NCBI GenBank assembly: GCA_964344965.1
Contig: CAYFPJ010000001.1
Location: forward strand, 86,771 to 150,770
Reading direction: 5' to 3'
Length of the DNA: 64,000 bases
Origin: an uncultured Gammaproteobacteria bacterium
Lineage (GTDB): Bacteria; Patescibacteriota; Patescibacteriia; Magasanikbacterales; UBA922
Shown piece after piece: positions 5,401-58,062 of the stretch. The stretch's first letter is position 1, and every line of letters starts with the position of its first letter. The notes under the pieces are model-generated. The model was not told the DNA's origin. It searched no databases and worked only from the letters and a program-made list of their open reading frames with translations. The position numbers and the translations under genes are program-made.

Positions 5401-5969
5401 CACCCGTATTAGAGGTGGAAGGACTGAACCGAGATTCTTGGGTAGTAGTTGGTGGTGTTGTGGATGCTTTGAAAAAAAAGATTACTAAAAAAGGATCTGT
5501 AATGATGTTTGCTACTCTTCAAGATATGTCTGGTAGAATTGAAATGCTAGTATTCCCAAAAGCATATGAAGCTACTAAAGATTCATGGGAAGTAGGAAAA
5601 GTGATTTGTGTAGTAGGGAAGACTCCTCGGGAAGAAGGGGATAATAAGATTTTTGTAGAAAAAGCATATAATCTCTCTAAAGAAAGTATTGAAGAGGTCT
5701 CTCGTTATTTGTCTTTAGGAAGTGGTACTTCAAAAAAAGAAGAAAAAAAGAGTGACAATTTTGTCACTATCACACTCTCTCACGAAGAATTACAGGGTAA
5801 TGCAGAAAATTTGAAAAGTCTTTTTGAAGAATTTCCAGGAAACTACGATGTATACGTCCAAGTGGGTTCTAGTACTATCAAGGGGCAAACACAAATTGCC
5901 TGGTGTTCAGAATTGGAAAGCAGGCTAGTTGATTTGTTGGGTGATGAGAAGGTGGAGGTGAGTGGGTGA
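2496..5969 (+). CDS. dnaE: DNA polymerase III alpha subunit
   Basis: 1157 aa with an N-terminal PHP domain (HLHTHSHYSLL), a polymerase core and an OB-fold region. Confidence 0.92.
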   Translation: MNFVHLHTHSHYSLLRGLPKIKELVTAAKQKGFSAIALTDYGAMYGAIEFYKECQKQDIKPIIGFEAYLAPRNHTDKDSQHDKEFSNLVLLAKNYDGYRNLMKLCSISHLDGFFDGKPRVDKDLLRQYSKDIICLSGSILGNIPRLLKNNDLEGAKKEALELNEIFGPDNFYLEMQDHPGIEGQLDVNTKLTQMSKETGIPLVVSRNVHYLEPDQSEAQDVLVCIGEGWKIGQTDRVDYRHVDRSLNTGEDIASRFRHVPEAIENTVKIADMVNIEIELDKWHFAPVDLPKDKNADEFLRDEVYKYVGNFYDPVTEEIKERIEYELDIIKNKGYSPYFICVADYVRYAKDNGIVESTRGSAAGSVVSYVLGITTVDPIHFKLPFERFLNPFRPSPPDVDTDFADDRRDEMIEYVTNKYGVDKVAQIITFGSMAARASVRDVGRVLGFSYGFCDQVAKLIPIGAQGFPMTIERALKEEPDLKKLYDTNEDVKRLLGLAQQVEGCARHTSIHAAGVVISPTPLTDFTPVQRETGGERILTQYSMYDVESAGVLKNDFLGIRNLSILGKAVEIVEKTTGERVDIYNLPLDDIKTYEMISRGETMGVFQFGSSGMQRWIKELKPTNIDDIMAMVALYRPGPMDFIPEYIRRKHNPEVIDYPHPDIEEILEKSLGLLIYQDDIMLTAIKLAGYDWLEADKFRKAMGKKIPELMIEQEKKFKQGCVENKIPKDTVEDLWNRIKPFASYGFNKAHAASYGMVAYQTAHMKAHYPVQYMTAVLQAESHDADKISAIVGECRRIGIEVLPPDVNESFKSFAMISKPGEKGRIRFGLTAIKNVGDHICEVIYQERKKNGQYKSLEDFLERIEDKDLNKKSVESLAKTGALDCFGIDRGVLMANSENILGFIRQEKERRQTNQDSLFAGTSIAIDSKVRIVESAEATMDEKLVWEKELLGIYVSSHPFAYYQKFLGEKITPVLEVEGLNRDSWVVVGGVVDALKKKITKKGSVMMFATLQDMSGRIEMLVFPKAYEATKDSWEVGKVICVVGKTPREEGDNKIFVEKAYNLSKESIEEVSRYLSLGSGTSKKEEKKSDNFVTITLSHEELQGNAENLKSLFEEFPGNYDVYVQVGSSTIKGQTQIAWCSELESRLVDLLGDEKVEVSG

Positions 5970-12845: not shown

Positions 12846-13715
12846 TCACAATATATCTAGTGAAATATCTAAAGCTTTTGTAGAATGGGTGAGGCTCCCA
12901 AGTGAGATGACATCGACACCACTCTTGGCATAGCCAGCAATATTTTTTTCATTAATTCCACCTGATGCTTCGAAAATAATATTAGTTTTGCCAATTTGCT
13001 TGAGAATTTTTCTGATATCACTTGGCTTGAAGTTGTCGAGCATGATGGCGCCGGGGTTTTGTTTTACAAATTTTAATACTTGGGATTTTGTTTTACATTC
13101 TATTTCCCAGAAAGACTTAAGACTTAAGATAGAAGATTTAAGATTTTTGTTTTTTTTGATATGATTGTCCTTTATTAAAATCCAGTCATAGAGTCCTAGT
13201 CTATGTGTTCCGCCACCACCTAAGGTTACTGCTTTTTTGTCGACTAGTCCCCATTGAGTTTTACGGGTTGGGACGATGAGGATATCTTTGCCTACTTTTT
13301 TTACTAGTTTGTTTGTTTGGGTGGTAATACCAGACATTCTTTGTAGTAAGTTTAAAATTGTCCGTTCTACTTTTAGAATATTTTTTATTCCTCCAGTTAT
13401 CTTGAGTATTTTTTCGCCTTTTTTGATCTTGCGACCATCCTTTTTGTAACTTGTAACTTGTAACTTGTAACTAGAGAGAAACCATTGTATTTCTTGGAGG
13501 CCAGCAACAATTCCATTCTCCTTGGCTTTTACAATAGCTGTCACTTTTGGATTTCCTTTTATCATTGCATCACTTGTGACGTCACCGATATTTTCAAGAT
13601 CTTCAGACAAAAAATCTGCAGTCAATCGTTTGACTTGCTCCAAGTATTTTTTATTTTTGAGAGTTAGTTTGGCTCTCTGATTAAAATACTTATATATTTT
13701 TTGTTTTTTATTCAT
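12846..13715 (-). CDS. nadC: nicotinate-nucleotide pyrophosphorylase (quinolinate phosphoribosyltransferase)
   Basis: 289-aa QPRTase family protein. It contains an in-frame (TTGTAAC)x4 tract at 13444-13471. Confidence 0.85.
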   Translation of the reverse strand: MNKKQKIYKYFNQRAKLTLKNKKYLEQVKRLTADFLSEDLENIGDVTSDAMIKGNPKVTAIVKAKENGIVAGLQEIQWFLSSYKLQVTSYKKDGRKIKKGEKILKITGGIKNILKVERTILNLLQRMSGITTQTNKLVKKVGKDILIVPTRKTQWGLVDKKAVTLGGGGTHRLGLYDWILIKDNHIKKNKNLKSSILSLKSFWEIECKTKSQVLKFVKQNPGAIMLDNFKPSDIRKILKQIGKTNIIFEASGGINEKNIAGYAKSGVDVISLGSLTHSTKALDISLDIL

Positions 13716-13729
13716 ACTGATCAGTTTTT

Positions 13730-13810
13730 ATCTGTCTAATCTGTTAGATCTGTGTTCTATTTAATTACACCATTTAGATAGAACACGGATTGAACTGATC
13801 TAACTGATTT
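13730..13810. repeat. family C palindromic element (TAGATCTGTGTTCTAT...ATAGAACACGGATT)
   Basis: Inverted repeat; related copies lie at 49760-49864 and 57841-57920. Confidence 0.6.
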
Positions 13811-13819
13811 GAACGGATT

Positions 13820-14830
13820 TTATTTACTCAGCTCCATCATGCGATCCAAAGCCAATTTTGCTTTTTGTAGAATTTCATCAGGAATATCAACAATTTGTTT
13901 TTTGTGAGGATTTTTCAGAGCCATTAGGACTTGCCCGAGATTAATCTGCTTCATGAAGGGGCAGAGCTGACAAGTGCCAACTATTTGCTTGTTTGGGAAT
14001 TCTGTCTTTACTCTATCAGTGATCCCACATTCGGTGATGAGCATGTAGTTGTCAGCTGGATTTTCTTTTACATATTTGAGCATGTCAGCTGTACTTCCGA
14101 CGAGATCTACAGCGTCAGTGACTGATGAAGTACACTCATAGTGAGCTAAGATGTGAGTTCCAGGATATTTCGTTCGTATATCATCTATGGCTTGCTTGTC
14201 AAAGCGTTCATGCACAATGCAAGTCCCATGCCAGAGGATTAATTTCTTCTTGGTTCTCTTTTGTAGATTTTCTCCCATCAGTTTGTCGGGAATGAAGATC
14301 ACTTCGTCTTCTTCAAATGATTCAATAATTTTGAGAGCATTGGAGCTGGTACAACAGACATCACTTTCAGCTTTCACTTCTGCGCTAGTGTTGACATAGG
14401 TCACTACTGGTACGCCTGGATATTTCTTTTTCAATTCTCTTACATTTTCAGCAGTAATACTCTCAGCTAGAGAACAGCCAGCGACGTCTGGGACTAGGAC
14501 TTCTTTTTCCGGACTAAGTATCTTGGCAGTTTCTCCCATGAAGTGTACCGAGCAAAAGATTATTTTTTTAGCGCTGTGTTCGGCGGCAATCTTGCTGAGA
14601 CCATAAGAATCTCCCACAAAATCAGCAATACCATACATGATATCTGGAGTTTGGTAAGAGTGGGCGAGAATGATAGCGTCTTGCTCTTTTTTGAGCTCAT
14701 TAATTTCCAGGGTCATGTGGGCTATCAAACCACAGTCTTCGAGAGACCAGTTGACGTTTTTTAGTTTTTCGTATAGTCGATTGGTTTCTGCTTTGATTTT
14801 TTCTGGTGAATATTTCATAATTTCTGTCAT
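13820..14830 (-). CDS. nadA: quinolinate synthase
   Basis: 336 aa with the cysteine-containing motifs of the NadA family. Confidence 0.88.
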   Translation of the reverse strand: MTEIMKYSPEKIKAETNRLYEKLKNVNWSLEDCGLIAHMTLEINELKKEQDAIILAHSYQTPDIMYGIADFVGDSYGLSKIAAEHSAKKIIFCSVHFMGETAKILSPEKEVLVPDVAGCSLAESITAENVRELKKKYPGVPVVTYVNTSAEVKAESDVCCTSSNALKIIESFEEDEVIFIPDKLMGENLQKRTKKKLILWHGTCIVHERFDKQAIDDIRTKYPGTHILAHYECTSSVTDAVDLVGSTADMLKYVKENPADNYMLITECGITDRVKTEFPNKQIVGTCQLCPFMKQINLGQVLMALKNPHKKQIVDIPDEILQKAKLALDRMMELSK

Positions 14831-14936: not shown

Positions 14937-15403
14937 AATTCTAGGCTATTCTTTTTAGTCCATGGTGCATGTTGTTGCCATAATGAGTTATTATTTTTTA
15001 TCATCTTACGCAGTTCTGTTCCAGAAATATTAATATTAATCTTAATCTTTTTTACATTATATCCTTTTTCTTCAAACAAACCCGCTACCCATTCATTACC
15101 AGTATAGACTACATCAAAACTTCCAACGATCTTCACCACATGGTCGATCCAATTTTTTTCGTCATGAATATCTGGAATGGCAAGTATTTTGTAATTTAAA
15201 TTTTGATCTTGAAGAGATTTTTCAATCATTTCTTTTCTTTCTTCAAAAGTCCAGGGATTTTCATCAGTATCGCTATACTGTGAACTACCAACTCCAATAA
15301 TTATTTCGTCTTCTGAAATTTGTTTCAAGGCATCGAGGTGGCCGAGATGGAAGGGTTGGAAGCGGCCGATGAAGAGGACTTTTTGCATAGACACAGATTG
15401 CAC
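14927..15403 (-). CDS. nicotinamide/nicotinate mononucleotide adenylyltransferase, archaeal NadM-like
   Basis: 158 aa with a FIGRFQPFHLGH nucleotidyltransferase motif; it sits inside the NAD biosynthesis operon. Confidence 0.75.
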   Translation of the reverse strand: MQSVSMQKVLFIGRFQPFHLGHLDALKQISEDEIIIGVGSSQYSDTDENPWTFEERKEMIEKSLQDQNLNYKILAIPDIHDEKNWIDHVVKIVGSFDVVYTGNEWVAGLFEEKGYNVKKIKININISGTELRKMIKNNNSLWQQHAPWTKKNSLELSS

Positions 15404-15418
15404 AGATTTTTACGGATT

Positions 15419-16159
15419 TCACAGATCACAGATTGGAGCTGTAGTATTTTTGTGAGTTGAATTTTTCATCATCTCTTTTACCTTCTCTACATCTGCACTT
15501 TCAAATCCATCCAAACTAGCATCATCCTCAATCGCTTTCAAAATTTTATCAAGCACTTCGTACGTTATTCCAATCTCTTCTTCATCAGTCTGACCTTCCC
15601 ATAGTCCTGCAGTCGGCGGTCGGTCAATTATCTCTTGAGGAACACCAATATGTTTTGCCAGTTCGCGTTCTTCTGTTTTGTAAAGATCTCCGATAGGTAA
15701 GAGGTCCACTCCACCATCACCATATTTTGTAAAGTAACCAATCATCAATTCTGTTTTATTTCCTGTACCGAGTACTATCCCGCCGATCTCATTTGCCTCA
15801 CCATAAAGGAGCGACATTCGGATCCGGGCTTTGAGGTTACCGGTTGAATATTGGGAGCTGTAGAGATTGTTGGTAGATTTTTGGAATGCCTCTAACATTG
15901 GTTCTATACTGAATACATAAGACTTAAGATTTAAGATTTTTGCCACACGTTTGGCAAGTTCGAGATCTTCCGAAGTGTTGCTGTCAGAAGGGGACATGAT
16001 AACATGGACTTTATCGGCTCCGAGGGCTTCGGTAGCAAGAAAAGCTACGACAGATGAGTCGATTCCGCCACTTAGGCCGATTACTACTGGTTTGTCACCG
16101 ACGTGGTGTTTTATAAATTGGATAATTTTGTCTTTTGTCTGATCCATAGAAATTGGCAT
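15419..16159 (-). CDS. nadE: NH3-dependent NAD+ synthetase
   Basis: VVIGLSGGIDSSVVAFLA PP-loop motif; 246 aa. Confidence 0.88.
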   Translation of the reverse strand: MPISMDQTKDKIIQFIKHHVGDKPVVIGLSGGIDSSVVAFLATEALGADKVHVIMSPSDSNTSEDLELAKRVAKILNLKSYVFSIEPMLEAFQKSTNNLYSSQYSTGNLKARIRMSLLYGEANEIGGIVLGTGNKTELMIGYFTKYGDGGVDLLPIGDLYKTEERELAKHIGVPQEIIDRPPTAGLWEGQTDEEEIGITYEVLDKILKAIEDDASLDGFESADVEKVKEMMKNSTHKNTTAPICDL

Positions 16160-43051: not shown

Positions 43052-43297
43052 ATGTCAGAAAGAGACAGAAGAAGGAGAGGTAGAAGAAGGACTGGTGACC
43101 AGCCCGCATCTCCTGAACAATCAGTAGTGGAAAGACAAGAGTCTTGGTTTGATGCATTTGAAAAAAAACACAAAGAAAATATCAGACAAGCAATACTTGA
43201 AAAATACGATGTGTTTGAAGAATTTGAAAATGTGACCCCCGTTGAATCTTTAAGCGGTTTTATTCCTCGATGCTTGCATCGAAAAAGTGAAAACTAA
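43052..43297 (+). CDS. hypothetical small Arg-rich protein
   Basis: 81-aa ORF; its last 50 nt fall inside the 145-bp direct repeat. Confidence 0.3.
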   Translation: MSERDRRRRGRRRTGDQPASPEQSVVERQESWFDAFEKKHKENIRQAILEKYDVFEEFENVTPVESLSGFIPRCLHRKSEN

Positions 43298-43389
43298 CAT
43301 TGGTTGAAATAAGATTTTCTGCCAATACCCCGCAGCTTGCTGCGGGGATGGCCCGATGAAGTCTTACTTAAACCAAATTTACTTTTATT
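43245..43389 (+). repeat. 145-bp direct repeat, copy 1 (identical to 47019-47163)
   Basis: Base-by-base comparison shows identity across all 145 nt. It contains the hairpin CCCCGCAGC ttgc TGCGGGG. Confidence 0.85.
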
Positions 43390-46977: not shown

Positions 46978-47260
46978 ATAATTTACAATTTGAAATTTTT
47001 AATTTGAAAACAATTTTAAATCTTTAAGCGGTTTTATTCCTCGATGCTTGCATCGAAAAAGTGAAAACTAACATTGGTTGAAATAAGATTTTCTGCCAAT
47101 ACCCCGCAGCTTGCTGCGGGGATGGCCCGATGAAGTCTTACTTAAACCAAATTTACTTTTATTGATTTAATTTTTTAATTTTAAAATTTGTTTAGTCCAT
47201 TGAATAATTAAAAATTAAGACATTGTTTAAAAATTTCAAATTGTAAATTATAAATTTAAC
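46978..47260. repeat. family F MITE-like element interrupted by copy 2 of the 145-bp direct repeat (47019-47163)
   Basis: Left TIR at 46978-47018 and right portion at 47164-47260. The inserted segment is identical to 43245-43389. Confidence 0.6.
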
Positions 47261-49759: not shown

Positions 49760-49864
49760 TTAGGTAATAGAACACGGGCCTTCGGCACACGGATTCAACG
49801 GATATGAACGGATTTAATACGTGTCAATCCGTTGAATCCGTGTCATCCGTGTTCTATTACCTAA
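49760..49864. repeat. family C palindromic element (TTAGGTAATAGAACACGG ... CCGTGTTCTATTACCTAA)
   Basis: Nested inverted repeats with ACGGATTCAACGG / CCGTTGAATCCGT inside. Confidence 0.65.
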
Positions 49865-52708: not shown

Positions 52709-52747
52709 ACCAAAGTTTATCTTGAACTATAGAAAACTACAACTTTC

Positions 52748-52843
52748 GTCATTGCGAGGAGCGACGAAGGAGCGATCTATCTCATTGTTTTCTCTACTAC
52801 CACTGAGATTGCCACGTCGTTCTTTCAGACTCCTCGCAATGAC
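52748..52843. repeat. family A MITE-like element
   Basis: Same TIRs and orientation as the copy at 51039-51154. Confidence 0.7.
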
Positions 52844-52860
52844 GAATTAATTTTGAAAAT

Positions 52861-52895
52861 AAAAAAGCGCTGTGAATGCAGCGTTTTTGTTTTTG
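52861..52895. terminator. bidirectional terminator hairpin (AAAAAAGCGCTG tgaa TGCAGCGTTTTTG)
   Basis: An A-run, a hairpin and a T-run between cca (+) and the minus-strand RNA gene cluster. Confidence 0.6.
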
Positions 52896-52902
52896 TGTTG
52901 TG

Positions 52903-53035
52903 TGGACCGGCCCGGTTCGCACACTCTCTTCCGGAAGGATAGGTACTCCTTCGAGGGCGCCCCTCCCCCTTGGGAGAACCTGGGTTTGAGAGTGGCGAAC
53001 CGGTCCGGTCTGGTTACCGGAGGCGGGGTCATATC
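52903..53035 (-). ncRNA. GC-rich structured element of unknown identity (candidate small RNA)
   Basis: Long-range pairing GACCGGACCGGTTCGCCACTCTC / GAGAGTGTGCGAACCGGGCCGGTC on the minus strand encloses about 60 nt containing a TTCCGGAAGGA motif. There is no ORF, and GC is far above the local average. The strand is uncertain. Confidence 0.35.
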
Positions 53036-53042
53036 TATGCTA

Positions 53043-53116
53043 TGTGTGCGACAGGATTCGAACCTGCGACCTCCCTCATACCAAGAGGGCGCTCTATCCG
53101 CTAGAGCTACGCACAC
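53043..53116 (-). tRNA. tRNA-Thr (anticodon GGU)
   Basis: Minus strand: acceptor GTGTGCG/CGCACAC, D GCTC/GAGC, anticodon stem CCCTC/GAGGG with loop TTGGTAT, T-arm GCAGG TTCGAAT CCTGT, discriminator A. Confidence 0.8.
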
Positions 53117-53147
53117 AAACATGATGACCCCGCCTCAACGGCGAGTA

Positions 53148-53254
53148 TTGCGGGGGCAGGAGTCGAACCTGCGAGCCCTTGGAGAGTCTCGGTTTTGAAT
53201 CTCCAAGGCACCGGGTCATGAACCCGGCGGCCAAACCAGCTGGCGTTCCCCGCG
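53148..53254 (-). tRNA. initiator-like tRNA-Met (anticodon CAU) with an approximately 31-nt hairpin inserted in the variable region
   Basis: Minus strand: 5' CGCGGGG ... CCCCGCA A 3' as in E. coli tRNA-fMet, including the C1xA72 mismatch. Anticodon stem CCGGG/CCCGG with three G-C pairs and loop TTCATGA. T-arm GCAGG TTCGACT CCTGC. The extra hairpin CCTTGGAGA ... TCTCCAAGG lies between the anticodon and T arms. Total length is 107 nt. Confidence 0.55.
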
Positions 53255-53303
53255 ACAACTGGCTTTTACCCTAGCGATATCTCTCATTTTTGTCAAGTAT
53301 AAT

Positions 53304-54059
53304 TTGTGGAAGTATAATGTTGTAGTCAAAAACAAAAGAATGTATAATAGGTGGTATATGATTATTGAATTTTGGAATACATTTCTCTACGAACCCCTGT
53401 TCAACTTCTTGATCTGGATGTACAACAATTGGACAGACGCCAATATGGGTTGGGCGATAATTGCCTTGACCGTTTCTTTGCGTTTGGTCTTATTACCTCT
53501 TACCATCATTACGGAACGTAATCAGGCCAAAAATGATGGTCTAGAGGACGAAATCAAGCGAGTGGCGAAGGACTATCACTATGACCCAGTACTTCAGAAA
53601 GAAGAAATACGTCGCAAATTGAAACAGCGCAAAGTAAAGCCATGGGCCAAGGCTATCAATCTTGGCATCCAAGGTCTGGTCTTACTTTTGCTTTACCAAG
53701 TGTTTGTGAATGGGATTACTGGAGAGCGGATGATCAAGACCCTCTATTCTTCTGTAGATTTTCCTGGTGTGATCAATACTATGTTCTTTGGTCTTGATCT
53801 TAGTGAACCTTATGGATTATTCCTATCTGGAGCAGTGGGAATCTGGCTCATGCTTGAGATTTATATGGGTTTCAAAGGTCACCGCAAGTCTTTATCCCGA
53901 GCTGATTTGTTTTATTTCCTCCTTCTCCCTCTGTCAGTCTTCTTGCTACTCTGGGTGTTGCCCATGGTCAAAGCTCTTTTCATCCTCACTTCATTAGCAT
54001 TCTCACTAGTCGCTCACTGGCTGATGAAACCGTTTTTTAAGAAAAAGAAAAAGGCTTAG
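53304..54059 (+). CDS. yidC: YidC/Oxa1-family membrane protein insertase (short form)
   Basis: GWAIIALTVSLRLVLLPLTI and a KPWAKAINLGIQGLVLLLLYQVF core. The exact start is uncertain. Confidence 0.7.
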   Translation: MWKYNVVVKNKRMYNRWYMIIEFWNTFLYEPLFNFLIWMYNNWTDANMGWAIIALTVSLRLVLLPLTIITERNQAKNDGLEDEIKRVAKDYHYDPVLQKEEIRRKLKQRKVKPWAKAINLGIQGLVLLLLYQVFVNGITGERMIKTLYSSVDFPGVINTMFFGLDLSEPYGLFLSGAVGIWLMLEIYMGFKGHRKSLSRADLFYFLLLPLSVFLLLWVLPMVKALFILTSLAFSLVAHWLMKPFFKKKKKA

Positions 54060-54124
54060 CTAAGGCATTTTAACGCTCTCTTTGTTTACATTTGATTGAT
54101 TTTGTGATAATCTATTGTAGATTT

Positions 54125-54230
54125 GGGTTATACAACTAACAACTAACAACTAACAATTTTTTTAGATAATGTGATGTGAATTGTTAATTGTTAATTGTTA
54201 ATTTGTAATTTCAGATTTTGTAGCTCAGCT
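54125..54230. repeat. AT-rich palindrome with (CAACTAA)x3 ... (AATTGTT)x3 arms
   Basis: Read directly; related to GTCAATTGTCAAAAGTTAAATGTTAATTG motifs at 1830-1860 and 46722-46800. Confidence 0.55.
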
Positions 54231-54270
54231 TTTTTGTTTTGAGCACAGTCTCTATATTCATTGACTAGGT

Positions 54271-54861
54271 ATGTCCCAATCTCTCGACAAACTGATGTAT
54301 TCCTTTGTGATGGAAGATGTTCTCAAGGGATTTTTTATTTACGTGCCACCAGGATATGTTGCTTGTGTCTATGATCTTGGTAGGGGAGTACTCAAAAAAG
54401 TTTTGACTCCAGGTCTTCACTTCAAAATTCCGTTTTGGCAAAAGGCCAAGCTTTTCAACACTCAAACTCTCGAATACAGCATCTCTCGTAATTTCAATCC
54501 AGAAAATGAAAAAGCAATGGGAGATATCCCAACAGCAGCGGTGACAGAAGATGGGAAGAGGATTGGAGTGGAAGGGACTATCTTGCTTCGTTTAGACATT
54601 CATCAGATCCCAGCTATTTGGCAGACCATTGGTGAGGATTTTGTAGCGAAGATTATCCGTCCCACTGTCAGAAGTAGGATTAGGATGGTTGCCAGTCGAT
54701 TTGAATTTCAGGATCTGGTCGGAGCGAAGCGAGATACTGTAGAGACAGAGCTCAAGAATGAATTAGAGCGCATATTCTATTCTCGTGGTATTTATGTCGA
54801 GAATGTCCTTCTTAGTGAGATTGCTAATGTGCAGGAGTATAAGCGGACTGCGGAAGAATGA
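54271..54861 (+). CDS. SPFH/Band 7 (stomatin-prohibitin) domain protein
   Basis: 196 aa with a Band-7 core (GLHFKIPFWQKAK...TEDGKRIGVEGTILLR). Confidence 0.65.
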   Translation: MSQSLDKLMYSFVMEDVLKGFFIYVPPGYVACVYDLGRGVLKKVLTPGLHFKIPFWQKAKLFNTQTLEYSISRNFNPENEKAMGDIPTAAVTEDGKRIGVEGTILLRLDIHQIPAIWQTIGEDFVAKIIRPTVRSRIRMVASRFEFQDLVGAKRDTVETELKNELERIFYSRGIYVENVLLSEIANVQEYKRTAEE

Positions 54862-55029
54862 TGATACTAATGACACGAATATTGAGTTGGAATAACACGA
54901 ATTTTACCACCCAAGCTGGGTGGTTTTTTGATACTACGGATTACGGATAATACGGATTTACGGATAGAAGACTGGTTGCCTTTTTTAAAAAATGGTTTAG
55001 AGTGTATACGCACTGAAGGGAGGTGCAAG

Positions 55030-55320
55030 ATGGCAGGATTCTGGGCGTCTGTGGCGGTGGCGACTGTGGTCGTTGTCGTCGTAAAGACGATCCTCTGGGT
55101 CCGAGAGGACCGCTTGCAGAAGAGGATCCTTGCGTTTCTTGAGACCGAGGAAGGGCAACTTTCCGACCTGGCAGAGATCACATCCGAGGTTATCCCGGCC
55201 GGGAAGAAGATGTACCGGGATCAGGTTCGAGTTGAGGAGTCCTTGAACACACTCCTCGACAAGAAAAAGATTTGGTACAATTGCGACTACGGGTACTCCG
55301 TCGTTAAGAAGGAGGACTGA
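55030..55320 (+). CDS. small hypothetical protein encoded in an anomalously GC-rich segment
   Basis: A GGAGG SD 7 nt upstream, an N-terminal hydrophobic stretch (VAVATVVVVVV) and a helical C-terminus. Its codon usage is GC-rich (GCG GTG GCG GTC), unlike neighbouring genes. Confidence 0.4.
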   Translation: MAGFWASVAVATVVVVVVKTILWVREDRLQKRILAFLETEEGQLSDLAEITSEVIPAGKKMYRDQVRVEESLNTLLDKKKIWYNCDYGYSVVKKED

Positions 55321-55599
55321 CATGCCCTGTCAACCCAACCTACGAATTTGCGGTTTCTCTCGTGGGTTGGCTGAGGAGGGGTCAGCATGGCATTTTCTCG
55401 ACCGATTTGGTCAGAGGAAACTGTAAATGCTTATCCGGGCCGTGGTCTGGAGGGGGTGTCGCGGCTCGGTCGAAGAACATTGGTTTTAGCCACTCTTTGC
55501 CACTTTTTGAAGTGGTTTTTGTATATTTTCTCATCGTAGGTAGAAAGTGCCTGCACTACGTAGCCCGACCGTAGGGGGGCGAAGCAGTGTGGATAAGTA

Positions 55600-55652
55600 T
55601 TGACACCTTATTTGAAAGTATGATATTATCACTCACAGTATTAGAGTGATAA
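55600..55652 (+). promoter_or_regulatory. hrcA promoter (TTGACA-17-ATATTA) with overlapping CIRCE-like operator TTATCACTC-N9-GAGTGATAA
   Basis: ttgaca at 55600-55605. The inverted repeat at 55626-55652 matches CIRCE (TTAGCACTC-N9-GAGTGCTAA) at 14 of 18 positions and sits immediately before the hrcA ATG. Confidence 0.6.
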
Positions 55653-55653
55653 T

Positions 55654-56334
55654 ATGCTAAGTCCTCGCAGAGAAAAACTTCTTCGATTGGTAATTGAGAA
55701 TTATATAGACACTGCAGAGCCAGTAGGCTCTAGTTTTTTGGCCCAAAAAGGAGGCTTGAAAGTTAGTGGTGCCACGATCAGGAATGAGATGCGTGTTCTC
55801 GAAGAATTAGGATATCTTACCCATCCTCATACTTCTTCTGGACGTATTCCGACTGAGATTGGGTATCAATATTATGTAGAGAACATCATGGAAGTGCCTT
55901 CTGTAGACAAAGATATGATTAGAAAGGTAGAGACTGTAGTAAAGGAAGAGTCAGATATGCGCACCCAAGTAAAGCAAGTAGCCAAGTTTACTGCCGAGCA
56001 TTTGCAAAATTCTATTATCGTAGCTTTTGGTCCTCACTCTGTTTATTACACTGGCATTTCATATTTGTTTGCCCAGCCAGAATTTCGAGATTCAGCCTAT
56101 ACTGTCAATATTTCAAAAATTTTTGACCACTGTGAAGACAATTTGGAAGCTATGTATGACCTCATATCTGAAGGGAAAACAGAAGTACTAATAGGGCAAA
56201 AAAATCCTTTTGGCAAATCATGTGGACTGGTGGGGACTAGAGTAGGAGATACATTGTTTACAGTCCTAGCACCGCTTCGTATGAATTATGCCAAAGCAGT
56301 CGGACTTCTTACTTATATAAATTCTGCAAAATAA
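55654..56334 (+). CDS. hrcA: heat-inducible transcription repressor HrcA (short form)
   Basis: The N-terminal wHTH LVIENYIDTAEPVGSSFLAQK...GATIRNEMRVLEELGYL is typical of HrcA. Confidence 0.85.
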   Translation: MLSPRREKLLRLVIENYIDTAEPVGSSFLAQKGGLKVSGATIRNEMRVLEELGYLTHPHTSSGRIPTEIGYQYYVENIMEVPSVDKDMIRKVETVVKEESDMRTQVKQVAKFTAEHLQNSIIVAFGPHSVYYTGISYLFAQPEFRDSAYTVNISKIFDHCEDNLEAMYDLISEGKTEVLIGQKNPFGKSCGLVGTRVGDTLFTVLAPLRMNYAKAVGLLTYINSAK

Positions 56335-56335
56335 C

Positions 56336-57235
56336 ATGACAAATGATATAGATAACAAAACACAAAAAAAGACACGGGATATTTCAATAGTTACAGGAGT
56401 TTTTGTTGAAAATGAAGATAATGAAGTATTGTTTGTAAAAATGCCAAAATGGGGAGACAGATGGGGTATTCCGGGAGGGCATCTTGATAGAGGTGAGGCA
56501 CTAGAAAAGGCTGCACTCCGTGAATTGAAAGAAGAGACAGGAGTTGATGCAGACAAGGCTGAATATATTGGATACACAGAGATGGCAGAGCCAAAAGATT
56601 TCCACAAAAGCAAACATTTTATTAGCTTTCAATTTAAAGTAAAAGTAAAAGGTAGACCGAAGCTTAAATTAGAAAAGAGAGAATTGACTGATCATCGGTG
56701 GATGACACTAGAAGATGCCCGAAAGCAAGATGATCTAAATTCCATCATGGTGAAGACTTTGGAGATGATGTCAGATCAGGTGAAAGAAGAAAACATTGAT
56801 TATAAAGATAAATGGCTTCGTGCTCAAGCAGACTATTCCAATCTACAAAAAGAAATTTCTGAAAAAAGAAGCCAATGGGCAGAGATGAGTGAGTGGCAGA
56901 TTCTCGAAGAGTTTATCCCAGTCTATGATAATTTCAAAAAAGCATTTGACAATGATCAGCGAGCAATGATCAACGATCAGAAGCTACAGAATTGGGTTAT
57001 CGGGGTAGAATATATTAAAAAACAATTTTCGGACGTACTTGCAAGTCATGGTGTTGAAGAGATAGAAACAATCGGGGAAACATTTGATCCAAATTTTCAT
57101 GAGTGCATGAGTGAAGAAAGTTCAGATGAGCATGAAGACGGAGCGATCATTCGGGAAGTAAGTTCTGGGTATAAGAAAGGGGGGCGGGTATTGAAAGTTG
57201 CGGGTGTGGTTCTCAATAAAAAAAATAAAGAATAG
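56336..57235 (+). CDS. grpE: NUDIX hydrolase domain fused to nucleotide-exchange factor GrpE
   Basis: Residues about 45-68, GGHLDRGEALEKAALRELKEETGV, form a perfect Nudix box (Gx5Ex7REUxEExGU). The C-terminal 145 aa (WLRAQADYSNLQKEISEKR, FIPVYDNFKKAF, GETFDPNFHE, GYKKGGRVLKVAGVVL) align with GrpE. It is a single continuous ORF. Confidence 0.8.
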   Translation: MTNDIDNKTQKKTRDISIVTGVFVENEDNEVLFVKMPKWGDRWGIPGGHLDRGEALEKAALRELKEETGVDADKAEYIGYTEMAEPKDFHKSKHFISFQFKVKVKGRPKLKLEKRELTDHRWMTLEDARKQDDLNSIMVKTLEMMSDQVKEENIDYKDKWLRAQADYSNLQKEISEKRSQWAEMSEWQILEEFIPVYDNFKKAFDNDQRAMINDQKLQNWVIGVEYIKKQFSDVLASHGVEEIETIGETFDPNFHECMSEESSDEHEDGAIIREVSSGYKKGGRVLKVAGVVLNKKNKE

Positions 57236-57840: not shown

Positions 57841-57920
57841 ATAGAACACGGATTAAACGGATCGAACAGATAAAAACAGATCAGTTCAGATCAGTTTAAT
57901 CCGTTAGATCTGTGTTCTAT
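57841..57920. repeat. family C palindromic element (ATAGAACACGGATTAAACGG ... CCGTTAGATCTGTGTTCTAT)
   Basis: Read directly. Confidence 0.65.
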
Positions 57921-57922
57921 AA

Positions 57923-58062
57923 TTTTATAACTAACTAAAAATATGCCAAAAATATTAGGAATCTTCCTACGCTCTCCGCTGCGCTCCGAGCTTCGGAAGG
58001 ACAAGTCGACTTTAATTATAACTAACTAAAAAATATGCCAAAAATATTAGGAATTGATTTAG
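57923..58062 (+). repeat. duplication of the dnaK ribosome-binding site and first seven codons (two copies about 92 nt apart) flanking a GC-rich hairpin insert
   Basis: TTATAACTAACTAAAAATATGCCAAAAATATTAGGAAT at 57923-57962 and again at 58015-58056, with the insert CTTCCTACGCTCTCCGCTGCGCTCCGAGCTTCGGAAGG between them. The upstream copy opens a 27-codon ORF ending TAA 6 nt before the dnaK ATG. Confidence 0.7.

Follow-up and report, generated by a model that had tools for sequence, protein, structure and literature searches.

The 64-kb stretch of DNA analysed here (the window, whose positions are used as coordinates throughout) comes from a streamlined bacterium of the Candidate Phyla Radiation (CPR) and carries, between a gene of the SPFH/Band-7 family and hrcA, the first gene of a heat-shock operon, a GC-rich island with a single small gene that we call ORF96. 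The DNA between about 55008 and 55587 has a foreign composition and is an insertion specific to this lineage, with a possible regulatory lead-in from 54933. We consider it probable that this insertion represents an orphan islet from a donor of higher GC content that uses Shine-Dalgarno (SD) signals, inserted by illegitimate repair at a palindrome and insulated from hrcA. Features between 54906 and 56334 are given on the forward strand unless stated otherwise.

Composition and coding capacity of the island

Over 55000-55599 the GC content of 200-nt windows lies between 0.51 and 0.58, against 0.38-0.41 directly outside; the mean for the whole 64 kb is 0.389, with a standard deviation (sd) of 0.038 in 600-nt windows. 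The two 600-nt windows richest in GC are those of the island and of a tRNA cluster at about 52660, the only place among all such windows to equal the island. Maximum-likelihood segmentation with two boundaries places the main GC-rich block at 55008-55475, with 55.3% GC versus 40.6% outside, and a second patch of about 60% GC follows at 55540-55587 (60-62% over 55540-55599 in a 40-nt GC profile), between a terminator and the hrcA control region; the fold of this patch is not significant (z = -0.95) and it shows no similarity to the spacers of relatives. An initial annotation of the same DNA had proposed an island of anomalous GC content, and both the window profile and the segmentation bear this out, even if the contrast then given, 55-60% versus 35%, was slightly overstated, the real values being about 53-55% and 38-41%.

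Within the main block lies ORF96, an open reading frame (ORF) for 96 amino acids that extends from an ATG at 55030 to a TGA stop at 55318-55320 (55030-55320). Its GC content at the first, second and third codon positions is 0.57, 0.32 and 0.74, and the last value (GC3) is about 6 sd away from that of the host, which is 0.356 ± 0.065 in 40 ORFs of at least 200 aa; the GC-rich codon usage reported earlier is thereby confirmed. To what extent does this indicate a real gene? Length is no evidence of coding, because stop-free runs of at least 96 codons arise in 44% of shuffles of the island. The main evidence for considering ORF96 a coding sequence is its three-base GC periodicity: The difference between GC3 and GC2, 0.417, was reached by none of 100,000 shuffles, the maximum of which was 0.33.

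The gene is preceded by a strong SD site, as the initial annotation had it, which was read from the sequence as AAGGGAGGTG at 55016-55025 (GGAGG at 55019-55023), 6 nt upstream of the ATG. This site looks foreign because most genes of the host have no recognisable SD: Of 40 long ORFs, a single one is preceded by a 5-nt core, although the most favourable candidate start was chosen for each. Further upstream, the sequence offers a candidate sigma-70-like promoter, TTGCCT-16-TAGAGT at 54976-55003, which has 8/12 matches and so falls below the scan threshold of 9/12; it is weak, AT-rich and possibly host-derived. Gene callers extend the frame by 34 codons to a TTG at 54928, yielding a product of 130 aa (P0001). 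We prefer the 96-aa form, because the GC3 of the extension is host-like (0.41) and its TTG falls inside the T-run of the terminator of the upstream SPFH gene; the extension is probably not part of the gene. An ORF of 108 aa on the reverse strand was rejected as the true gene, having no homologue, no SD and an atypical pattern in which GC1 exceeds GC3.

Downstream of the gene, the minimum free energy (MFE) fold of 55318-55525 contains five hairpins, the last of which is a terminator (z = -2.8; 1 of 200 shuffles folds as well). The first hairpin of this 3' untranslated region (UTR), at 55331-55371, has an 11-bp stem formed by CCAACCTACGA and TCGTGGGTTGG (inverted repeat I9, arms 55335-55345 and 55360-55370, 91% complementary), and the intrinsic terminator, GCCACTT-TTTG-AAGTGGT followed by TTTTT at 55499-55521, was found by a terminator scan as well as in the MFE fold. 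Hairpins had already been noticed in the GC-rich non-coding part, and these two structures, the second spanning 55499-55516 plus its T-run, bear out that description. An SD-like GAGGAGG (55373-55379), sequestered in the MFE fold in a helix with the stop region of ORF96, is followed by a 50-codon ORF at 55387-55539 that matches no family, has flat GC across codon positions (0.46/0.50/0.46) and is probably not coding; it was rejected as a gene together with a 70-aa ORF of the same region, both having flat codon-position GC and the terminator inside them. Likenesses seen by eye to an RNase P motif and to an attC core were not upheld by further checks. The 3' part has no similar DNA in phage or plasmid collections and would be the 3' UTR or intergenic DNA of the donor. 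Taken together, the ORF96 unit is self-contained, with a strong SD in front of its 96 codons and, behind them, a structured 3' UTR of about 180 nt as well as an intrinsic terminator of its own.

Such structure also lends itself to a different explanation, namely that the island is a native structured-RNA locus, GC-rich for the sake of its RNA structure, or a de novo gene, with an ORF that is fortuitous or newly born. The other strong GC peak of the genome, at 52850-53300, does consist of structured RNAs, the ORF region (z = -2.5) is, like the 3' region, somewhat better folded than its shuffles, and ORFs of this length are frequent by chance and this one has no homologue. However, the codon-position signature never appeared among the shuffles and periodicity becomes flat after the stop codon, while the gene shows a canonical SD at the right spacing, an ATG and a clean architecture of a transmembrane (TM) segment plus a soluble part; moreover, Rfam returned nothing in the island at its gathering threshold or even at E ≤ 10. 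We regard a native RNA or de novo origin as unlikely.

The predicted product begins with a TM helix at about residues 4-24, for which the Kyte-Doolittle mean over 19 residues reaches 2.27 (residues 4-22), in keeping with the hydrophobic N-terminus and membrane anchor described before. The helix is followed by positive charges (REDRLQKR) and then by a charged segment of about 70 residues, with 70 polar residues in the whole protein. By the positive-inside rule the charges after the helix argue for an N-out/C-in topology, and the sequence suggests that the C-terminal part of about 70 aa, charged and helical, would be cytoplasmic. This part had been likened to a winged helix-turn-helix (wHTH) domain, a likeness for which we found no support: No HTH family was retrieved from Pfam, with or without the TM segment, or from NCBIfam, even at E ≤ 10. 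Single-sequence AlphaFold2 models of the full protein and of its soluble part have low confidence, with a predicted local distance difference test (pLDDT) score of 53 and 64, respectively, and show helices only and no wing; their confidence is too low for a fold search and for a verdict on a wHTH.

Searches for relatives of the protein were equally sparse in their returns. A word-indexed search of 5.8 billion clustered proteins retrieved only ORF96 itself, and an exhaustive HMMER search of 1.84 billion representatives retrieved itself plus a single other match, P0002 (E 1e-9), which is spurious, being a translation of 1307 aa with tandem repeats that inflate the score. There is no homologue in PHROGs, NCBIfam, PADLOC or the sequences of PDB, where phmmer gave only a match of E 1.3 to an unrelated chain, none by tblastn in phage and plasmid collections, and none by scans with degenerate patterns in IMG/VR and JGI metagenome DNA; an exact match of 19 nt in an IMG/VR contig is due to chance, as similarity does not extend beyond it and the phage has 67% GC. 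Residues 8-78 align weakly with the N-terminal half of the Pfam profile DUF4446, comprising a TM helix and the next helix (E 0.099, 13 bits). This likeness does not amount to membership, the score lying far under the gathering score of 27.4 and the match vanishing once the TM segment is removed. ORF96 belongs to no protein family, and the gene is new but uninformative.

The locus in relatives and the hrcA control region

The island is surrounded by housekeeping genes in the order MetK, BacA, GpsA, CCA-adding enzyme, YidC, SPFH/Band-7, the island, HrcA, Nudix-GrpE, Hsp20 and DnaK. The relatives available for comparison are seven related contigs in which the SPFH gene lies directly upstream of hrcA, and none of the seven encodes ORF96; the check for absence in relatives, which the initial annotation had proposed, has this outcome. 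The spacer between SPFH and hrcA, 792 bp long in the window, measures 234 bp in the nearest relative (L002, a metagenome-assembled genome of Candidatus Magasanikbacteria), 179 bp in L031/L032, 323 bp in L033, 184 bp in a JGI contig, about 110 bp in L003, about 160 bp in L029 and about 900 bp in L027, where it contains a RibD_C gene of opposite orientation. Because other lineage-specific genes of the relatives have host-like composition, the island is unusual even at this variable spot. Alignment of the spacers, by which the borders of the island were sought, gave no similarity above that of shuffled sequences except from TGTGGATAAG (55588) onwards, and an apparent match of GTATATTTTCTCAT to L002 is not significant.

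L002 is also the best genome match of the window, which places the latter in a Magasanikbacteria-like CPR (Patescibacteria) genome of about 39% GC. In the nearest relative HrcA is 71% and SPFH 94% identical to the proteins of the window, and no HrcA closer than 73% identity is present in the protein collection, so that a recent date for the event, as previously claimed, cannot be set more finely than roughly the genus level. What speaks for a recent event is the unameliorated composition of the island together with its absence in relatives, and nothing beyond these. The same comparison provides an observation in its own right: The SPFH protein (window 54271-54861 versus L002 5176-5763) is 94% identical beside a neighbouring HrcA of 71% identity, a gap that reflects either very unequal constraint on neighbours or exchange between lineages.

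Could the segment be an artefact of assembly? Suspicion would arise from its abrupt change in composition and from the fact that Logan contigs break at 54934-54963. However, a MEGAHIT contig of run ERR2281802 spans both junctions with 100% identity along 12,361 bp, contigs assembled by Logan from runs ERR2281803 and ERR2281801 start at 54936 or 54934 and run into hrcA and beyond, and MEGAHIT contigs of ERR2281805 cover 53949-55018 and 55407-56428. Contigs from these three other runs join the island at 100% identity to its left flank (L035) or right flank (L024, L025). As to the break, left contigs end at 54963 and right contigs start at 54934, which is exactly the k-1 overlap of 30 nt, and it occurs because this 30-mer belongs to the arm of a repeated palindrome. 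We also considered the break as the sign of an allele without the island, and rejected this interpretation: The membership of the 30-mer in a repeat family explains the fork, and no contig with an empty site was found. The segment is thus identical in four runs (ERR2281801, 02, 03 and 05) and two assemblers, MEGAHIT and Logan, and the chimeric or contaminant origin against which the initial annotation had advised a check is effectively refuted.

On the left, the SPFH gene (54271-54861; Pfam Band_7, E 5e-24) is followed by its own intrinsic terminator at 54906-54930, with an 8-bp stem containing five GC pairs and then a T6 run, which belongs to the native flank. On the right, the promoter scan identified the hrcA promoter TTGACA-18-TATTAT at 55600-55629, and the inverted-repeat scan identified an element resembling CIRCE (controlling inverted repeat of chaperone expression), ATATTATCACTC-N9-GAGTGATAATAT at 55623-55655, which overlaps the promoter. 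The position just upstream of promoter and CIRCE originally assigned to the island is therefore correct. The core of the element, TTATCACTC-N9-GAGTGATAA at 55626-55652, is a variant of TTAGCACTC-N9-GAGTGCTAA and is kept in relatives; with its 9-bp inverted repeat, 9-nt spacer, overlap with the promoter and location ahead of hrcA-grpE-dnaK, it has the organisation of a CIRCE/HrcA operon. The hrcA gene (55654-56334; Pfam HrcA, E 2e-9) codes for a short form of 226 aa and heads hrcA, grpE (a Nudix fusion), hsp20 and dnaK. A DnaA-box-like sequence, TGTGGATAA, is kept at 55588-55596, just upstream of the -35 box of hrcA.

Three features of this operon are of separate interest. The DnaA-box-like nonamer (TGTGGATAA / TTATCCACA, with variants) is found directly 5' of the hrcA -35 box also in L002 (at about 5909-5919), L031, L027, L003 and L004, a recurrence of sequence which suggests that DnaA or another factor may bind beside the heat-shock promoter. 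The short form of HrcA, of about 226 aa, occurs throughout the clade. An N-terminal Nudix hydrolase domain is present on GrpE in the window (56336-57235), L031 (4684-5541) and L033 (4680-5567), and not in L002, L027 and L028.

Has the insertion altered the control of the heat-shock operon? Probably not, because the island carries its own terminator and the DnaA-box-like site, the -35 and -10 boxes and CIRCE are all intact. No functional link of the insert to the operon was detected, its own terminator being in place and the control region of hrcA untouched, and the islet appears not to rewire heat-shock regulation. This bears upon the notion that the island is a local regulatory or toxin module, be it a membrane-tethered wHTH regulator of hrcA or a pair akin to type I toxin-antitoxin systems. 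Its location directly upstream of hrcA, the membrane anchor joined to a helical cytoplasmic domain and the structured 3' region that sequesters an SD-like GAGGAGG are all compatible with it. Type I toxins are hydrophobic proteins of under about 60 aa with an overlapping antisense RNA, whereas ORF96 has 96 aa, 70 of them polar, and the promoter scan detected no antisense promoter-like site in the island; furthermore, PADLOC gave no match, no HTH family and no winged-helix fold (in models of low confidence) emerged, and the relatives regulate the same operon without ORF96. We consider such a module very unlikely.

Palindromic elements and the origin of the island

The left boundary of the island coincides with the arm of a repeated palindromic element, a point that had previously been missed. 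This solo arm, at 54933-54966, contains four TACGGAT units starting at 54935, 54942, 54951 and 54959, that is 7-9 nt apart. Six metagenome contigs from JGI (L038-L043; 33-44% GC) contain an exact 23-mer of it, as the 5' arm of hairpins of about 80-120 nt whose 3' arm is an inverted ATCNGTA array. These copies lie between genes, which by reading of their translated starts include RuvX, a nucleotidyltransferase and SecY, and often just 2-6 nt separate them from a start codon; they were located in L038 (9522-9630), L039 (4039-4142), L040 (7035-7140), L042 (365-447 and 994-1026) and L043 (5718-5806 and 9975-10095). A profile built from the arms of the subfamily matches 54933-54966 at E 6e-11. In the window the family comprises also E1 (49768-49857) and E2 (57843-57921), both with the termini ATAGAACACGG...YGTGTTCTAT, E3 (13700-13830), made of two abutting halves, and E4 (15387-15440), a solo arm.

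Considered together, these elements are intergenic, measure about 80-120 nt and have arms of three to seven heptamer units, ACNGAT or ATCNGT, at a spacing of 7-9 nt, the arms of this genome being 94-97% identical to those of AT-rich metagenome contigs that are not related to it. None was present in the loci of relatives that were examined, Rfam produced only generic hairpin noise on them, and literature searches on palindromic repeats of CPR bacteria gave no description of heptamer-array elements. They apparently constitute an undescribed family. With repeats of the repetitive extragenic palindromic (REP)/REPIN type and with miniature inverted-repeat transposable elements (MITEs) they share the form of intergenic hairpins of such size, present in several copies per genome and common to several genomes, and a placement that directly follows a stop codon or precedes a start codon. 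They differ in that their arms are arrays of a unit of 6-7 nt, ACNGAT, repeated every 7-9 nt instead of a single REP palindrome, and in that neither a RAYT or transposase gene nor a target-site duplication was seen here.

Given an arm of this kind at its edge, the island might be regarded as the cargo of a MITE-like heptamer-array element, or as captured inside one, with a second arm at 55420-55446 closing a mobile or recombination-prone unit of 514 nt. The left arm is a genuine family member by its profile score and by the 23-mer shared with six other contigs. The candidate degenerate partner, CTGTAAATGCTTATCCGGGCCGTGGT, came from duplex prediction: With 54933-54964 it forms three helices totalling 23 bp, at -27.4 kcal/mol. 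No nearby sequence pairs better with the left arm, and in the entire window only one, a true arm, does so; among 400 dinucleotide-shuffled versions of the island, 2 reach this value. Once the cargo is removed in silico, the two arms fold like complete elements. Yet the arm profile misses 55420-55446 at E < 100, there is no target-site duplication, and GC-rich DNA runs past the putative right arm; solo arms occur elsewhere free of cargo (E4 and the halves of E3), no other copy bearing cargo was seen, and a membrane protein of 96 aa cannot be a transposase. A cargo origin appears improbable, and a more conservative reading places the island beside a solo arm, possibly as the result of its insertion into a palindrome.

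The explanation we favour remains that of an islet acquired from outside and placed at such a palindrome. The donor of the DNA would be an organism or mobile element whose genome has roughly 55-60% GC and which relies on SD-led translation; a fragile palindrome between genes would have been the site at which illegitimate or microhomology repair inserted the DNA, the solo arm marking its left edge. The product would be a single-pass membrane protein with its N-terminus out and a charged helical domain of about 70 aa in the cytoplasm, most likely serving as an accessory or neutral passenger. The horizontal acquisition from a high-GC donor put forward in the initial annotation agrees with the composition, the SD site and the absence in relatives; the donor itself, or any homologue, is what the searches have failed to supply. 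Because of this failure, the argument for foreign origin is one of composition and phyletic absence only.

This reading needs to be qualified by several points that weigh against it. Neither donor nor homologue nor related non-coding sequence was found in the clustered proteins, the HMMER representatives, IMG/VR, JGI metagenome DNA or the phage and plasmid collections. The nearest relative is not very close, as its HrcA and SPFH identities indicate, so that loss of the segment in other lineages could still account for its distribution. The candidate promoter of ORF96 has an 8/12 match, and expression of the gene is a prediction. Finally, the island has no integrase, transposase, tRNA target or convincing target-site duplication, and its neighbours are housekeeping genes; a 14-nt direct repeat (12/14) at 54920/55512, considered as a target duplication, is no better than chance repeats in the same region.

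A broader conjecture is that the palindromes, as a family common to CPR-like genomes, act as fragile sites or vehicles by which foreign DNA enters these streamlined genomes. The ORF96 islet would be an example caught in the act, a palindrome that was split by a 0.5-kb cargo of higher GC or carries it, and an insert at dnaK would be a second one; we consider this improbable. The observation at dnaK is the following. Its 5' region, with the ATG and seven codons included, occurs twice, as direct repeats of 42 nt (57921-57962 and 58012-58054) that flank a GC-rich insert of 49 nt with the hairpin UCCGA-GCU-UCGGA; the insert lies right after E2 and creates a decoy ORF of 28 codons.

Capture of a small foreign gene is an ordinary kind of event. 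The present case is of value as a well-documented one, concerning a small orphan gene of foreign composition in a CPR bacterium that is an episymbiont with a reduced genome, and CPR genomes are thought to exchange DNA mainly via competence; the GC content of the islet (about 55-60%) and its use of an SD could hint at the type of donor. The family of palindromic heptamer arrays is the more original and more useful by-product of the analysis and, if its elements were truly insertion hot spots or mobile, would offer a new handle on the plasticity of CPR genomes.

Comparison with known systems and neighbouring structured RNAs

The island resembles horizontally acquired ORFan islets, with which it shares deviant GC and GC3, a foreign translation signal, a single small orphan gene and presence or absence between relatives with kept flanks. 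It differs in being only about 0.6 kb long, without integrase, tRNA target, flanking direct repeats or traceable donor, and in its host, a streamlined CPR bacterium, for which such insertions are less documented. Phage morons are similar in that a lone ORF, equipped with a translation start and a factor-independent terminator of its own, differs in composition from the two conserved transcription units between which it is wedged; however, the neighbours here are housekeeping chromosomal genes (CCA-adding enzyme, YidC, SPFH, HrcA, GrpE, Hsp20, DnaK), the candidate promoter is a weak match (8/12), and no PHROG, phage DNA or phage protein matches the island.

Cassettes of integrons likewise have a single short ORF, which is frequently an orphan and frequently codes for a membrane or secreted protein, followed by an imperfect palindrome, the attC site, which spans about 57-141 nt between RYYYAAC and GTTRRRY cores. 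ORF96 has just past its stop an RYYYAAC-like ACCCAAC (55333-55339), but the opposite GTTGGCT (55366-55372) does not fit GTTRRRY and about 40 nt is all that the palindrome covers; the surrounding 12 kb or so for which gene and Pfam calls are available contain neither an integrase nor a cassette array. In sum, the island works like a moron or mini genomic islet. It does not qualify as an integron cassette, a prophage moron or a type I toxin-antitoxin system.

The other GC-rich region of the window, the whole tRNA/RNA cluster at 52709-53303, is also absent at the same position in relatives. It contains on the reverse strand, at 53148-53254, a tRNA-like gene with a CAU anticodon, a C1:A72 mismatch and a GGG/CCC anticodon stem, the hallmarks of an initiator tRNA, along with a variable region that forms a hairpin of about 36 nt, which is unusual for tRNA-fMet. 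This gene scores 33.9 bits with the Rfam tRNA model and folds as a cloverleaf with z = -4.6, and it was not called by ARAGORN. On the same strand, between tRNA-Thr(GGU) and a bidirectional terminator (52863-52888), about 106 nt (52905-53010) form a long hairpin whose tip is branched and which may be an unannotated structured RNA: Its MFE is -72.5 kcal/mol (z = -5.1), none of 200 shuffles is as good, and Rfam gives no match at E ≤ 10. Elsewhere in the window, an exact repeat of 122 bp occurs at 43268-43389 and 47042-47163, and the MEGAHIT contig of ERR2281802 ends exactly at its second copy.

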